64,000 nucleotides of DNA from Dehalococcoidia bacterium (GCA_020845735.1 JADLFF010000037.1:2615-66614), one strand, 5' to 3'; shown: positions 51,837 to 56,390, counted from the stretch's first letter. Notes: generated from the letters alone by a model not told the origin. Numbers and translations are program-made.

Positions 51837-52334
51837 TCAGACGGCCGTCGTCGCAGCGGCGGCGGCCGCGGCGATGGCGGCGAGGCCGAGGCGGCGCACG
51901 TCGTCCGGGATGGGCGTGGGTGGGCCGTCGGGCGGGGTGAGCGTGGCGCCCTCGCGGAGCTGTTGCTCGTCGACCCAGGTCCAGCCCAGCACCTCGGGAA
52001 GCTGGAGGGAGGAGCCGGGGAGGGGGCGCGTGAAGTAGACGAAGTCGATGTGCTGGTGGGGCCCGTCCGTGCGGCTGTCGCGCGGGATGTCGTAGACGCC
52101 GATGGTGACGGGCGGCGGGAGCTGGGGCGGCTCGGTGATGCCGAGGGGGATCTGCCCGAGGACCTGGACGTGGAGCTCGGTCTCCTCGAGGACCTCGCGG
52201 ATGACGGCCTGCACCGGGTCTTCGTCGCGCTCGATGTGTCCGCCGGGCGGGAGCCAGAGGCCGTGGCGGTGCCAGTGGAGGGCGGTGCGGCCGCCCTCGC
52301 TGACGAAGCCGCTGACGGTGAAGTGGCGCTCCAT
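51837..52334 (-). CDS. NUDIX hydrolase
   Basis: Nudix box GGHIERDEDPVQAVIREVLEETEL. Confidence 0.8.
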   Translation of the reverse strand: MERHFTVSGFVSEGGRTALHWHRHGLWLPPGGHIERDEDPVQAVIREVLEETELHVQVLGQIPLGITEPPQLPPPVTIGVYDIPRDSRTDGPHQHIDFVYFTRPLPGSSLQLPEVLGWTWVDEQQLREGATLTPPDGPPTPIPDDVRRLGLAAIAAAAAAATTAV

Positions 52335-52494
52335 CGAGGGAGCCTACGTCCGCATCGACGCGCGGGCAACGCGCCTGGGTGGGGCCTCGGTGGGTGGGGC
52401 GTGACCGGACGGCGCGGCCGGCGAGGTGGGTGCGACTTGATTGTTCCGGAACTATCGGCTTGACACACCCAGCGTGCATCACTAAGATTGCGCC

Positions 52495-53469
52495 ATGCAC
52501 AACGAACCGACGCGCAAGGGCTCCCTCGTATCGCTGACGGACGGCACTCTCACTGAGGCCGAGGCGCGCGCGATGCTTGAGCGAATAAGGTGGCCCGAAC
52601 GCGTCCGGTGCATTTTCGAAGACTGCGGCGGGGCAGACGTGTACCGCGTTGAGGTCGCCGCCAAGACGTACCCAGCCACGGCGACGCGCAAGGGGCGGAC
52701 GGTCGGCGCGCGGTCGCTCTACAAGTGCAAGTCCTGTCGGCGACAGTTCAGCGTTACCAAGGGCACCATCTTCGAGGACAGCAAGATTCCTCTGCGGACG
52801 TGGATAGTCGTCATGTACCGCATGTGCTCCTCGAAGAAGGGCGTCTCGGCGCTACAGATCCAGCGCGAGTTCGGGCTGTCGTACGAGTCCGCCTGGTTCA
52901 TGTGCCACCGCATCCGCTACGCCATGCAGGACAAGTCCCCAAAACTGCTGTCGGGCACCGTCGAGGCTGACGAGACCTACGTCGGCGGGAAGGTCCGTGG
53001 GCGCGGTCACGGGTACCGCAAGAACAAGACGATCGTCTTTGGCATGGTCGAGCGCGACGGCAACGCGCGGACGCACGTCGTGCCCGACAACTCGGGGCCG
53101 ACGCTCAAGCCGCTGCTGCACGCTGCTATCGACACCAAGAACGCACGCCTGATGACTGACGAGTGGCGAGCCTACAACGGCATAGAGAAGTCCCTGCCGC
53201 ACGGGGTAATCCGACACAAGTCCGAATACGCCCGGGGCGACATTCACACGAACACAATCGAGTCGTACTGGGCGATCCTCAAGCGTGGCTTGATAGGCGT
53301 CTACCACAACGTGGATGCAGGCTATCTCCCCATGTACGCGAGCGAGTTCGAGTTCCGGTACAACCGGCGGAAGGTCAAGGACGCGGAGCGTTTCGCTTCG
53401 CTGCTCGGGCAGGTCGAGGGCCGCCTTGACTGGTACCTTCCCGCGCCGGAGTCGCCTTCGACTTCTTAG
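52495..53469 (+). CDS. IS1595-family transposase (zinc-ribbon + DDE)
   Basis: CKSCRRQFSVTKGTIFEDSKIPLRTW zinc-ribbon/HTH N-terminus. DDE core (VEADETYVGGK...; ...NTIESYWAILKRG). Confidence 0.8.
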   Translation: MHNEPTRKGSLVSLTDGTLTEAEARAMLERIRWPERVRCIFEDCGGADVYRVEVAAKTYPATATRKGRTVGARSLYKCKSCRRQFSVTKGTIFEDSKIPLRTWIVVMYRMCSSKKGVSALQIQREFGLSYESAWFMCHRIRYAMQDKSPKLLSGTVEADETYVGGKVRGRGHGYRKNKTIVFGMVERDGNARTHVVPDNSGPTLKPLLHAAIDTKNARLMTDEWRAYNGIEKSLPHGVIRHKSEYARGDIHTNTIESYWAILKRGLIGVYHNVDAGYLPMYASEFEFRYNRRKVKDAERFASLLGQVEGRLDWYLPAPESPSTS

Positions 53470-53566
53470 GCATCGGCCCAGCCTCTATCGCCCTGCGGAG
53501 CGCCTCCTCGATGGTCATGCCGTCGAGGGAGATGCGTGTGTCCTCGGGCTTCTTGCGGTCGGGCAT
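53375..53566 (-). CDS. Small ORF overlapping the transposase 3' end on the opposite strand (doubtful)
   Basis: MPDRKKPEDTRISLDGMTIEEALRRAIEAGPMPKKSK. Overlaps the transposase by about 95 nt; may be a shadow ORF. Confidence 0.15.
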   Translation of the reverse strand: MPDRKKPEDTRISLDGMTIEEALRRAIEAGPMPKKSKATPAREGTSQGGPRPARAAKRNAPRP

Positions 53567-53966
53567 CTTGTCCCCCTGAGATCTGCTCACACACCTACTC
53601 TGAGACACCATCACTAGCGTGATCGATGCACAGCCTGTAGAGTGCGAAACAGCCGCCCGGAGGCGGCTGCGTGTGAGCGGCTGACGCCGCGACCGAGGGG
53701 TTCTGCTGGTGTGGCAGCCGCAGAGTATTCCCCCTCGATCAAACCGTCAACCGACTCGCCGCCTTGGTTTCGTGTTGCCGTTTCCCGGCTCGATGCCGGT
53801 CATGGATCGCGCGTTCCGCATGGACGCGGAGTTGAAGGCGGAGGGAACGTTGACGGTCCGGTGTCGCGAAACTGTCCCGCCAACGTCCCCCCTCAGGGAG
53901 GGTTGGTCCCCGTGCGGTTCATAGTCGCACGCACAACAGCGTGTCGTCATTAGGGACTAGCGCGGG

Positions 53967-55583
53967 CTAGATCGCTCGCAGCCGTGGCCGCGTCTCCGCT
54001 CGAGACGCGGCCACGGGCAGTTGCGGGCGGACTCCTGCGAACAGGTCCGCGACTGTCACGAGCTGGAGCCGTGGGATGCCGTCCTCACTCACCCCAGCAT
54101 CGACGGCGGCACGTCGCATTGGTCCAGTCGGCTCGTGCAATGACACGAACACGCCGGTTTCGGCGTTCTCCCGCGTCACCGTGCCGTGGAGGTCGCGTAG
54201 GTCGCTTGGCTTGATGCCGCCACCCTTGACCGACACCAACGCCTTCCAGGTATCGCCGTTGTCGTACACGCCGACGATCTCCCCGTCGATACCGCGGTCT
54301 GCACCACGGCGCATCTCGCCGGGTATGCCGAGCCGCGCACGTACCCACTGCTGAAACTCGTTCTTGTCCTTGCGTGCCAGCGCTACCGCTTCGTCGATCG
54401 TGGTCGGTTCGATCAGGAATGTGTATTCGACCGCACCGTGTTGATCGCGAATGCGCTCCTCGATGATGTCGGTGGCGAGCCTCGTCACGTCGATGCCGAT
54501 CCACCGGCGGTTCAGCTTGATTGCCGCGTCCATCGCTGTACCGCATCCACAGAATGGGTCAAGAACCACATCGCCCTCGTTGCTCGACATTTCGAGGATG
54601 CGCTCAAGGAGCGCCAGCGGCTTCTGTGTCGGATACCCCAGCCGCTCTGCATCGTGGGCTTGGAGTGGCGAGATATCGTCCCAGATCGTGCCAACCGGCA
54701 TCCCGGGCATTTCGTCTAGGTATCGTTTCTGACGAGGCACGCGACCGGGTTTAGTCTGAACAATGCGGCCTGCCACGTGGAGTTCACGCATCCGATCACG
54801 ACTGAACCGCCAGTACCGAGTCACGCCCAGGAACTCGTAGTGCGGGTTTCGCTTCTCCGGACTCGCTCCACCTGGGGCGGTGATGTCGTATAAGCCGTAG
54901 CGCCGACCTGATGGGACTTCCGTGAATCGATAGAAGCGATCAACGTAGGACTGGTCGTACGGTCGGTACGGCTGATGCCACGTGCGCTTTTCGGATGCAC
55001 CATAGAACAAGAGCACGTCGTGAATTCGCCCTAGGTGCCTCGCTCCCTGAGCCGCGTCGTTGTGAGATGACTGGCGCTTCCAGATGATCTCATTGACGAA
55101 GTTCGATGGGCCAAAGATGGCGTCAAGCAACATCTTCAGGTAGTGACTCGCGGTCGGATCGCAGTGCAGGTAGAGGCTGCCAGTCGGCTTGAGAACACGC
55201 CGTAGTTCGATCAGCCGTGGAGCCATCATCGTCAGGTACGCCAGCATGTCGCTGCCGCTGTTCGTGCCGCTGCCACCAAGGAACTCATGGAAGGCGCGCA
55301 GCACGCGCGACACGTCCCCGCCGAGGGCCACTACCTCGCGGTAGAGTGCCGCCGATGCCTGGTCCCAGCGCCACGTGTCATCGAACGCCTTGGCCTGCGC
55401 GGCGGGCAGGCGACCATCCTGATGCTTGAACAGCAGGTTATAACTGCGGTTCGAGTTGAACGGCGGATCGAGATAGACGAGATCAACCGACTCGTCAGCG
55501 ACGTGATGACGCAGCACGTCAAGGTTATCCCCGAGGTACAACCTCCCCGCTGGCTCGAATCGCAACTGTCCACGACGGTTCAT
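53967..55583 (-). CDS. Beta-class amino-DNA methyltransferase (N6A/N4C) fused to C-terminal Mrr-like restriction endonuclease domain
   Basis: Motif IV LDPPFNS precedes motif I VLDPFCGCGTAMDAA, the beta-class order. C-terminal ADRGIDGEIV...VSVKGGG matches the Mrr_cat pattern (D..GIDG, ...K). Trimmed to ATG 55583 (MNRRGQ). Confidence 0.75.
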   Translation of the reverse strand: MNRRGQLRFEPAGRLYLGDNLDVLRHHVADESVDLVYLDPPFNSNRSYNLLFKHQDGRLPAAQAKAFDDTWRWDQASAALYREVVALGGDVSRVLRAFHEFLGGSGTNSGSDMLAYLTMMAPRLIELRRVLKPTGSLYLHCDPTASHYLKMLLDAIFGPSNFVNEIIWKRQSSHNDAAQGARHLGRIHDVLLFYGASEKRTWHQPYRPYDQSYVDRFYRFTEVPSGRRYGLYDITAPGGASPEKRNPHYEFLGVTRYWRFSRDRMRELHVAGRIVQTKPGRVPRQKRYLDEMPGMPVGTIWDDISPLQAHDAERLGYPTQKPLALLERILEMSSNEGDVVLDPFCGCGTAMDAAIKLNRRWIGIDVTRLATDIIEERIRDQHGAVEYTFLIEPTTIDEAVALARKDKNEFQQWVRARLGIPGEMRRGADRGIDGEIVGVYDNGDTWKALVSVKGGGIKPSDLRDLHGTVTRENAETGVFVSLHEPTGPMRRAAVDAGVSEDGIPRLQLVTVADLFAGVRPQLPVAASRAETRPRLRAI

Positions 55584-55697
55584 CACACACGAGCGTGTAT
55601 GGCAAAGGTGGATAAACCGTCGTGTACGTGTGGGTAGGGCTGGTGACGGAAAGCGGACGCCTGCTCCAGCCATCATCCACCTGAACTTGTGGGTGTG

Positions 55698-56048
55698 TCA
55701 AGCCGATAGTTCCGGATTGTTCTTGATTGAGGGTCCGTCGGCAGATTCGGGAGTTGATTGACTTGATTGATCTGGTGCGGTGGTGAGGGGTGGTGGTTCC
55801 TCGAGCCACGGGCGGAGGGTGCGGACCGCCGAGGCCTCGCGCTGGTCGCGGCTGCGTTGGACCGCGCCCCACGAGTCCATGAAGGCGACGAAGAGCGCCT
55901 GGCACCCGTGCGCGCCGGCGCGCCGCGCCTCGCGGTTGACGTCTGCGGGGTCCATCCCCTCGGTGGTGCGTTTCGCCTGGTGGAGGGCGCGGTCGATCGT
56001 GCGCTTGAGGGCCATCGAGAGCAGTTCGCCCATGGCAGGCGGGAGCAT
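55698..56048 (-). CDS. Hypothetical protein whose last 6 codons and stop lie inside the transposon right IR (probable insertion-altered 3' end)
   Basis: The stop TGA at 55698–55700 and the codons for ...NNPELSA are encoded by IR/flank sequence. Confidence 0.3.
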   Translation of the reverse strand: MLPPAMGELLSMALKRTIDRALHQAKRTTEGMDPADVNREARRAGAHGCQALFVAFMDSWGAVQRSRDQREASAVRTLRPWLEEPPPLTTAPDQSSQSTPESADGPSIKNNPELSA

Positions 56049-56390
56049 TCTGATCGGGACGGCGAAGGCCTCGCCGCTTCAGACGGCGAGCGCCTCGTCG
56101 CGCACCACCTCGTGGATGGTCCGCTTCGCGGCGTTGCGATTGCCCTTCGGGGCACCGGCGCCCGGCCGGGCGCCACCCCACGAGGTTGGCGTTGCCTCGG
56201 ATCCGGTGGCGCTGGGGCGGGAGACGTCCATCGAGGGAGTGTGCGGGGCCCCGCAGCGAGGTCCGAGGGGACAATGGCAGTACGGCGGTGGTCCCGCGAG
56301 CCCGATGGATTCACTCCTCCTCGGTGGTGTGGAGACACCCCGTGACGGTGGCGAGGATACTGGTCACGCCACCAGACAGGCGATGCAAGA

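Follow-up and report, generated by a model that had tools for sequence, protein, structure and literature searches.

A 3268-bp element at positions 52447-55714 of the window, the whole 64,000-nucleotide stretch of Dehalococcoidia bacterium DNA analysed here (GCA_020845735.1, JADLFF010000037.1:2615-66614), is in our judgement, at a probability of about 0.85, a transporter insertion sequence (tIS) that belongs to the ISNwi1 group of the IS1595 family and was inserted as one unit. Between perfect inverted repeats, it holds a transposase gene, a small antisense open reading frame (ORF) and, as its cargo, a gene for a beta-class DNA methyltransferase whose C-terminal domain has the PD-(D/E)XK fold. 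The whole unit was inserted into the 3' tail of a host gene, where it left an 8-bp target-site duplication. Cargo-carrying IS1595 elements are already a described class, and the concept is not new; the evidence below concerns the unity of this insertion, the identity of its cargo, and the exchange of cargo among its relatives.

The two ends of the element are well defined. Specifically, the left inverted repeat (IRL, 25 nt, CGGAACTATCGGCTTGACACACCCA, 52447-52471, + strand) is complementary at 25 of 25 positions to the right inverted repeat (IRR, 25 nt, 55690-55714, - strand), and identical copies of the 8-bp sequence GATTGTTC abut them on the outside, at 52439-52446 and 55715-55722. An earlier note on this DNA, made from the sequence alone, had drawn the element at 52436-55731, with 27-bp perfect inverted repeats and TTGT duplicated at both ends. 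The element and the perfect repeats are there, but the ends are refined to 52447-55714, the repeats to 25 nt, and the duplication from 4 bp to the full 8 bp of GATTGTTC. The apparent arms (52445-52471 and 55690-55716) are indeed 100% complementary over 27 nt; however, the outer 2 nt of each are part of the duplication, and because its GA...TC ends are self-complementary, the repeat appears to be 27 nt long and TTGT alone looks duplicated. The register of the ends was taken from more distant relatives, which combine repeats of the pattern (C)GG..ATTAT..CTTGACA..CCC with 8-bp duplications; wherever the ends of relatives are unambiguous (loci L041, L043, L057, L061, L066, L180, and L166), the duplication is 8 bp. 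The ends of the element in the window read C-GGAACTAT, and those of relatives read GGCAATTAT or GGGAATTAT. The putative end consensus of the ISNwi1 group, GGnnatTAT, would fit them. An 8-bp target duplication is also the norm of the IS1595 family (PMC8101967, PMC10045372). The lower GC content described in the earlier note is likewise borne out, at 0.58-0.66 within the element versus 0.69-0.75 in the flanks.

Other duplications were considered for this site and set aside. Duplications of 4 bp (TTGT) or 6 bp (ATTGTT) were ruled out, as those of relatives are all 8 bp. The 8-bp sequence CTTGATTG (52436-52443 and 55722-55729) was rejected for two reasons: its copies do not both abut the repeats, and it leaves the contig break points described below unpredicted, whereas GATTGTTC predicts them. 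There are three copies of CTTGATTG in the target region (the third at 55762-55769), and the element lies between two of them; on the coding strand, it reads CAATCAAG and encodes a Q/S/N-rich low-complexity tail.

The flanks of the element are the two parts of one host gene. Its 5' part occupies 55723-56048 on the - strand, in a frame that now stops five codons into the element, at 55698 (ORF 55698-56048), while its displaced 3' tail of ~31 codons lies at 52347-52438 (- strand), with the TAG just upstream of the start of a NUDIX gene. The last 31 codons of the target gene have thus been swapped for five element-derived codons. With 52447-55722 removed, the flanks read …GACTTGATTGTTCTTGATTGAGGG… across the join and a 142-aa ORF is regained on the - strand, and a search with the restored protein returned one full-length homologue, 67% identical, on contig L091. 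The DNA of that contig is 77% identical and colinear across the junction, and carries an uninterrupted TCAATCAAGAACAATCAAGT; the homologue ends …PSIKNNQV…RRVARASVRT*, with the NUDIX gene (MERHFTVSG…) directly after it and neither a transposase nor a methyltransferase in between. The claim that the insertion had replaced the 3' end of 55698-56048 is therefore upheld by the intact L091 homologue, in the sense that the 3' end was displaced. The same contig answers the concern, raised in the earlier note, that the methyltransferase might sit at this locus in relatives without the transposase: L091 has neither gene, and its site is uninterrupted. The protein collection contained no unbroken copy of the 142-aa target from the same lineage, just the truncated form and the one 67% homologue. 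Further upstream in the interrupted gene, an in-frame TGA (56079-56081, - strand) occurs where the L091 homologue (939-1538) has Trp (…AV* versus …KLW…), dividing a 199-aa protein into ORFs of 50 and 116 aa in all public contigs of the lineage. The host gene may already have been a pseudogene before the insertion, or may be read as two genes.

Public contigs that encode an identical transposase or methyltransferase all have the same flanks, and their break points are informative. Contig L002, recovered from 8 samples, corresponds to 52417-55744 and so extends exactly 30 nt past either end of the element; contigs L003 and L004 begin at 52417, and L010 stops at 55744. Break points 30 nt outside the element ends are those expected of a k=31 assembly graph in which the path of the filled allele leaves that of a coexisting empty allele, while extra copies elsewhere would break the contigs at the element ends themselves. 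From these break points, we infer that an empty allele coexists with the filled one. Such an allele would give a path of just ~60 nt in the assembly graph.

The assignment to the IS1595 family, as the earlier note had proposed, is supported by both domains of the 324-aa transposase (52495-53469, + strand), which was annotated using Pfam, NCBIfam, and reference domains. It matches PF12762 DDE_Tnp_IS1595 (E=1.8e-38, 132 bits, cut-off 27), PF12760 Zn_ribbon_IS1595 (E=2.8e-7, 30.8 bits, cut-off 25.4) and the NCBIfam model transpos_IS1595 (201 bits, cut-off 75), and Cys39/44/78/81 as well as D159, D222, E256, and K263 are invariant in 26 relatives. Identical proteins in NCBI are products of a Dehalococcoidia metagenome-assembled genome. 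For the subgroup, the DDE domain was compared with 21 ISfinder reference DDE domains rebuilt from the S2 File alignment of PMC8101967, as a ranking of scores and not a tree. The top three references were ISNwi1 (110 bits), ISPepr2 (104), and ISSpo8 (93), which are all three of the ISNwi1-group references and are 36-41% identical to the transposase over the DDE domain; the IS1016 group came next, at 87 bits. The family features listed in PMC8101967, namely a zinc finger (N-terminal, in every IS1595 group but IS1016), the DDE_Tnp_IS1595 domain, and an 8-bp duplication, are all found here, as are terminal inverted repeats. Plasmid records of relatives carry the label "IS1595 family transposase" only, without a subgroup.

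The next-closest transposases, from a Chloroflexota/Dehalococcoidia clade, are 75, 71, and 70% identical, and each is accompanied by a different cargo: an NYN-domain protein in L184 (75%), a PemK toxin and two ORFs in L180 (71%), and DUF3800 in L181 (70%). Whether the repeats are conserved in other copies, a point on which the earlier note had let its proposal depend, was examined in these three relatives, which have near-identical repeats (GGAACTATCGGCTTGACACACCCA); IRL positions 2-25 are identical in L184 and L180. DNA homology to the three runs from the left repeat to just beyond the transposase stop codon and resumes only at the right repeat, and their cargo is always convergent with the transposase gene. 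Together, these comparisons of sequence indicate that cargo has been exchanged among close relatives. Across the wider set of 80 genome loci that were fetched, 46 elements could be delimited by repeats, and all 46 extend 0.8-3.5 kb beyond the transposase. The Pfam matches of their cargo are mostly of toxin-antitoxin or conflict type (TumE, SocA/Panacea, PemK, PIN, HipA-like, DUF433, DUF3800, NYN, and HTH regulators). The cargo of the 46 (L011-L090 regions) also includes DUF3800 three times, Trypsin_2, and one thymidylate kinase, and most of the ORFs lack a Pfam match. The 2713-bp contig of L184 (Logan SRR22868752) extends ~30 nt (left) and 28 nt (right) past its repeats, near the pattern of the element in the window, and this break pattern suggests that the L184 insertion is polymorphic too. 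The DUF3800 relative in L181 (1-6000) adjoins many short same-strand ORFs and a Peptidase_M23 gene, and its region looks like a prophage or another mobile region.

Beyond the repeats and the transposase gene, we treat the small antisense ORF as a backbone gene of the element on the strength of its conservation, so that the description of a "one-gene IS" in the earlier note does not strictly apply. The ORF (63 aa, MPDRKKPEDTRISLDGMTIEEALRRAIEAGPMPKK…, 53375-53566, - strand) runs convergently to the transposase gene, whose last 95 nt it overlaps. The genome scan gave 17 relatives with a homologue of 54-75 aa at this position, and the three closest relatives have one there too; the conserved motif, …ISLxG/PMTIEEALKxAIxAGPMPKK…, lies outside the transposase ORF. 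Entropy at the three codon positions is 1.16/0.95/1.54, with third positions the most variable. The small ORF had no Pfam, PHROG, NCBIfam, or PADLOC match, and no description of it was found in a literature search whose scope lay outside the 2009 primary tIS paper and ISfinder.

Each repeat also contains the -35 box of an inward promoter-like site. The left site (TTGACA-17-TAAGAT, 52460-52488, + strand) has its -35 within IRL and ends 6 nt before the transposase ATG, while the right site (TTGACA-18-GATGAT, 55672-55701, - strand) has its -35 within IRR and points toward the methyltransferase. Both match the consensus at 10 of 12 positions, and they are the sole two such sites in 52300-55900. 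Under a stringent rule, 24 of the 47 elements have the IRL site, among them 12 of the nearest 14 (the element in the window and L011-L032), L025 and L017 being the two that miss the full rule; a comparable inward IRR site is found in 14/47 and 10/14, respectively. This distribution suggests that the right repeat may drive the cargo. The methyltransferase ORF is open up to 55676, and gene callers start it at 55583; transcription from the IRR site would begin past the ATG at 55676, and this speaks for the start at 55583.

From that start, the cargo gene (53967-55583, - strand) encodes 538 aa, with the methyltransferase part at approx. 54459-55487 and the PD-(D/E)XK-fold domain at approx. 54102-54356, both on the - strand. 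The protein matches PF01555 N6_N4_Mtase (E=2.8e-42), and motif IV, DPPF (residues 39-42), precedes motif I, DPFCGCGT (342-349), both motifs being conserved in 30 homologues. The closest solved structures are Type III modification (Mod) subunits (6k0w and the EcoP15I Mod 4zcf) and other beta-class N6/N4 methyltransferases. By these motifs and matches, the cargo is a beta-class, Type III Mod-like methyltransferase. DPPF, rather than SPPF, points to N6-adenine methylation. Given this motif and the Type III Mod-like core, the predicted specificity is for N6-adenine, and the cargo is most likely an N6-adenine methyltransferase that works on its own, unpaired with a restriction enzyme. The remaining ORFs of the element had no family match, to restriction genes or otherwise, in Pfam and NCBIfam scans, and neither a conserved neighbour nor a restriction partner of the methyltransferase was found in 80 homologous metagenome loci. 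The passenger that the earlier note had called restriction-modification-like is thus borne out as a methyltransferase gene that lies within the repeats, but the restriction-modification label is not established. The family is large, with at least 8000 scored matches, and among the 120 matches listed, nearly all share both the methyltransferase and the restriction endonuclease (REase)-like domain matches. The closest homologues of the methyltransferase occur in unrelated contexts with no transposase nearby.

The C-terminal domain is more ambiguous. It scores 22.6 bits against Mrr_cat (cut-off 21) and 24.4 bits against NA-iREase1, which is below the cut-off of 27 for that family. The C-terminal 150 residues were modelled with a predicted local distance difference test score (pLDDT) of 83.8, and in this model, the domain has the PD-(D/E)XK restriction-endonuclease fold. 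A profile search of the domain against PDB sequences gave chance-level matches only, and a fold search was used instead; PADLOC returned one marginal, uninformative match and no restriction-enzyme model. The motif reads G-x-D429-x-G-I-D433-G … S451-V-K453, in which D429, D433, and K453 are invariant, and E472, 19 residues past Lys453, is nearly so. The canonical D…(D/E/Q)-x-K triad is incomplete: it has its Asp433 and Lys453, but Ser stands at position 451. Among 79 homologous loci, this position holds Ser 61 times and Gln 18 times, and among the fetched proteins, Ser 102 times and Gln 16 times; Ser thus accounts for about 80% of the family, and Glu never occurs. Gln is the usual residue of Mrr and MspJI there. 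Ser at 451 could mark inactivation, which would fit the match to NA-iREase1 ("inactive REase"). As for the methyltransferase–Mrr-like catalytic domain named in the earlier note, then, the predicted fold agrees with it, but Ser replaces the Gln/Glu of (Q/E)xK, and the nuclease label is not established.

Members of this methyltransferase family were found in other elements as well. L043 is an IS1595-type element of 2660 bp with 25-nt repeats and the duplication AAGACGGT, and L166 is an IS1595-type element of 4525 bp that carries a PIN-like gene too, with 25-nt repeats and the duplication CTCGACAG. In L120 (2570-6618, 4049 bp), perfect 21-nt GGTAGTG… repeats and the 8-bp duplication CCTGCGTC bound an IS1-like transposase and a methyltransferase homologue, that is, a cargo-carrying IS1-family element. 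The captures in L043, L166, and L120 are separate, because their gene order and transposase family differ. An IS1-like transposase adjoins a methyltransferase homologue in L114 and L165 also, but no bounding repeats were found there. The homologue in L043 (8982-10417) matches in two pieces, in different frames, and the called ORF is missing the N-terminal part with motif IV; either the cargo gene has decayed, or the long-read assembly contains a frameshift error.

How firmly these results point to a tIS inserted as one unit depends on two other accounts of the element. A one-gene IS1595 element could instead have landed beside a resident methyltransferase, the right repeat being coincidental or solo, and the usual state of the family, solitary and not beside transposases, would suit such a history. 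However, a single 8-bp duplication flanks the transposase and methyltransferase genes together, around the entire 3268-bp unit and not around the transposase alone; no copy of the repeat was found between the two genes; in the empty site of L091, one flank runs straight into the other and no methyltransferase is there; the contigs break at both outer ends together; and the GC content at third codon positions (GC3) of the methyltransferase, 0.73, is far from the 0.96 of the adjacent host NUDIX gene (the transposase has 0.85). We therefore hold a resident methyltransferase to be very improbable. Alternatively, the element might be an immobile relic fixed in the lineage, its methyltransferase in effect a domesticated host gene, and we consider this improbable too. 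Identical proteins do occur in one genomic context only, across many samples, and the 64-kb window contains no further copy of the 27-nt arm with up to 3 mismatches allowed (0 expected by chance), and hence no second element. Yet neither the repeats nor the duplication has a mismatch, the ORF of the transposase is unbroken and retains every catalytic and zinc-binding residue, the break points of the contigs indicate a presence/absence polymorphism, and the sister element in L184 shows the same break pattern.

Whether the cargo cuts DNA is the harder question. From its sequence, the choice between a solitary methyltransferase and a cutting enzyme is evenly balanced, and we lean slightly toward a nuclease-fold domain that is not a free-standing restriction activity. 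The competing possibility, to which we give somewhat less than even weight, is that the cargo is a single-polypeptide restriction-modification enzyme (Type IIG/IIS-like or a helicase-less Type III), in which the Mod-like part would recognise and methylate a site and the C-terminal domain would cleave unmodified DNA; this would turn the element into a mobile module for defence or addiction that consists of one gene. Known Type IIG enzymes are built differently: they begin with a PD-ExK nuclease, after which come a gamma-class methyltransferase and a target-recognition domain; the cargo has the other order, a beta-class methyltransferase and then a C-terminal nuclease fold, although a functional analogy is possible. 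Ser is also a poor metal ligand, the best Pfam match of the domain, though below the cut-off, is the inactive family NA-iREase1, and no PADLOC restriction-enzyme model matches. On the other side stand the invariance of D429, D433, and K453, the restriction of position 451 to Ser or to Gln, the canonical Mrr/MspJI residue, the conflict-type cargo of sister elements (TumE, PemK, PIN, HipA-like, and SocA/Panacea), and the fact that a separate restriction gene was never linked in the 80 loci. Further, Cfr10I is fully active with S188-V-K190, its E204 supplying the missing acid (PMC3479162), and E472 could act in the same way to rescue the S-V-K of the cargo.

Several points weigh against the account of a mobile tIS that delivers a solitary methyltransferase. 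The exact empty-site sequence of the same lineage had 0 matches in JGI contigs, and no second copy of the exact element at another site was found in public contigs. As all contigs share the same flanks, mobility is deduced from structure. The promoter assignments are putative, being drawn from consensus matches, and the invariance of D429, D433, and K453, along with the existence of an active S-V-K enzyme in Cfr10I, keeps nuclease activity a possibility.

The element as we read it resembles several known systems without coinciding with any of them. Transporter ISs are described in PMC3129680 and PMC8101967, which cite Siguier, Gagnevin & Chandler 2009, and in the TnCentral preprint (10.1101/2021.05.26.445724). 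With the tIS of the ISNwi1 group, the element shares a zinc-ribbon and DDE_Tnp_IS1595 transposase, inverted repeats, an 8-bp duplication, and an unrelated passenger between the repeats, and it differs from them in its methyltransferase/REase-fold cargo and its conserved small antisense ORF. An IS1380-family tIS with a methyltransferase passenger, cited in PMC11891212, is alike in being an IS-sized carrier with a methyltransferase between its repeats, and different in its transposase family. The IS1-family element in L120 has the same cargo family, but its transposase family is different though related, and its gene order is another.

The cargo itself can be compared in the same manner. With Type III Mod (6k0w, 4zcf), it shares the PF01555 core and the DPPF and FxGxG motifs, but its C-terminal PD-(D/E)XK domain is fused, and no Res (helicase-nuclease) is found in the element or the 80 homologous loci; classical Type II/III restriction-modification systems have a separate, linked Res or REase gene, which is absent from the same set. 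With the Mrr/MspJI/AspBHI- and FokI-type domains, the C-terminal domain shares the PD-(D/E)XK fold and the G-x-D-x-G-I-D-G … x-V-K motif with its invariant Asp and Lys. Mrr and MspJI have Gln/Glu where the cargo has Ser, and these types are fused to a modification- or sequence-reading domain, unlike the domain here, which is fused to a methyltransferase.

The rest of the element offers few features. The spacer between the small ORF and the stop codon of the methyltransferase (53567-53966) contains nothing recognisable and had no nucleotide match in the fetched loci, and an Rfam scan of the element gave no match. An ORF at 53642-53953 (+ strand) was rejected as a gene and treated as non-coding, having no family match and no relative in any fetched locus. 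The spacer also includes an imperfect 23-nt inverted repeat (53743-53765 and 53835-53857, 78% complementary, 69 nt apart). Just within the 3' end of the methyltransferase ORF, a hairpin with a perfect 15-bp stem and a 5-nt loop (53982-54016, - strand) lacks a U-tract. The RNA fold of 53940-54030 (- strand) has a free energy of -49.9 kcal/mol (z = -5.0; 0 of 200 shuffles as stable), and a consensus terminator scan called no terminator, this hairpin included. The hairpin is possibly a transcript-end or stabilising structure.

The element has a backbone of 25-nt repeats, zinc-ribbon/DDE transposase, and small antisense ORF, with a cargo slot between the small ORF and the right repeat, and as a whole, it entered the disordered 3' tail of the host gene adjoining the NUDIX gene in the Dehalococcoidia chromosome. 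In the mechanism we propose, the transposase would bind the 25-nt repeats and move everything between them. The inward TTGACA box in each repeat would drive the transposase from the left and the cargo from the right. Upon arrival, the cargo would methylate adenine and impose a new methylation pattern on the host; a partner-less methyltransferase would suit a one-slot carrier, being harmless or even protective alone. As a more remote possibility, by analogy with Dam methylation for IS10 and IS50, the methyltransferase could regulate the transposition of the element. Likewise speculatively, and in our view unlikely in so strong a form, the lineage could be a dedicated cargo-swapping shuttle, with a fixed backbone (repeats with inward promoters, transposase, and a 55-75-aa antisense protein) and one slot for a conflict gene, the fusion being a minimal one-polypeptide restriction-modification or epigenetic module that was captured repeatedly since it is partner-less. 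The slot of such a shuttle may exchange toxin-antitoxin pairs, NYN, DUF3800, and the methyltransferase-nuclease fusion.

The locus is a very clean instance of a DNA-modification gene brought into a chromosome by an element of IS size, with its two ends, its duplication, and a natural empty site all in view. It illustrates a concrete way for a methylation pattern, and perhaps a restriction activity, to arise in an uncultivated lineage in a single step. In the ISNwi1-like clade, cargo carriage is the rule and not the exception, with close relatives swapping cargo, and two related transposase families account for at least four captures of the partner-less methyltransferase/nuclease-fold family. 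These results do not overturn current ideas, but they bear on the spread of defence and epigenetic genes and on the annotation of insertion sequences in metagenome-assembled genomes.

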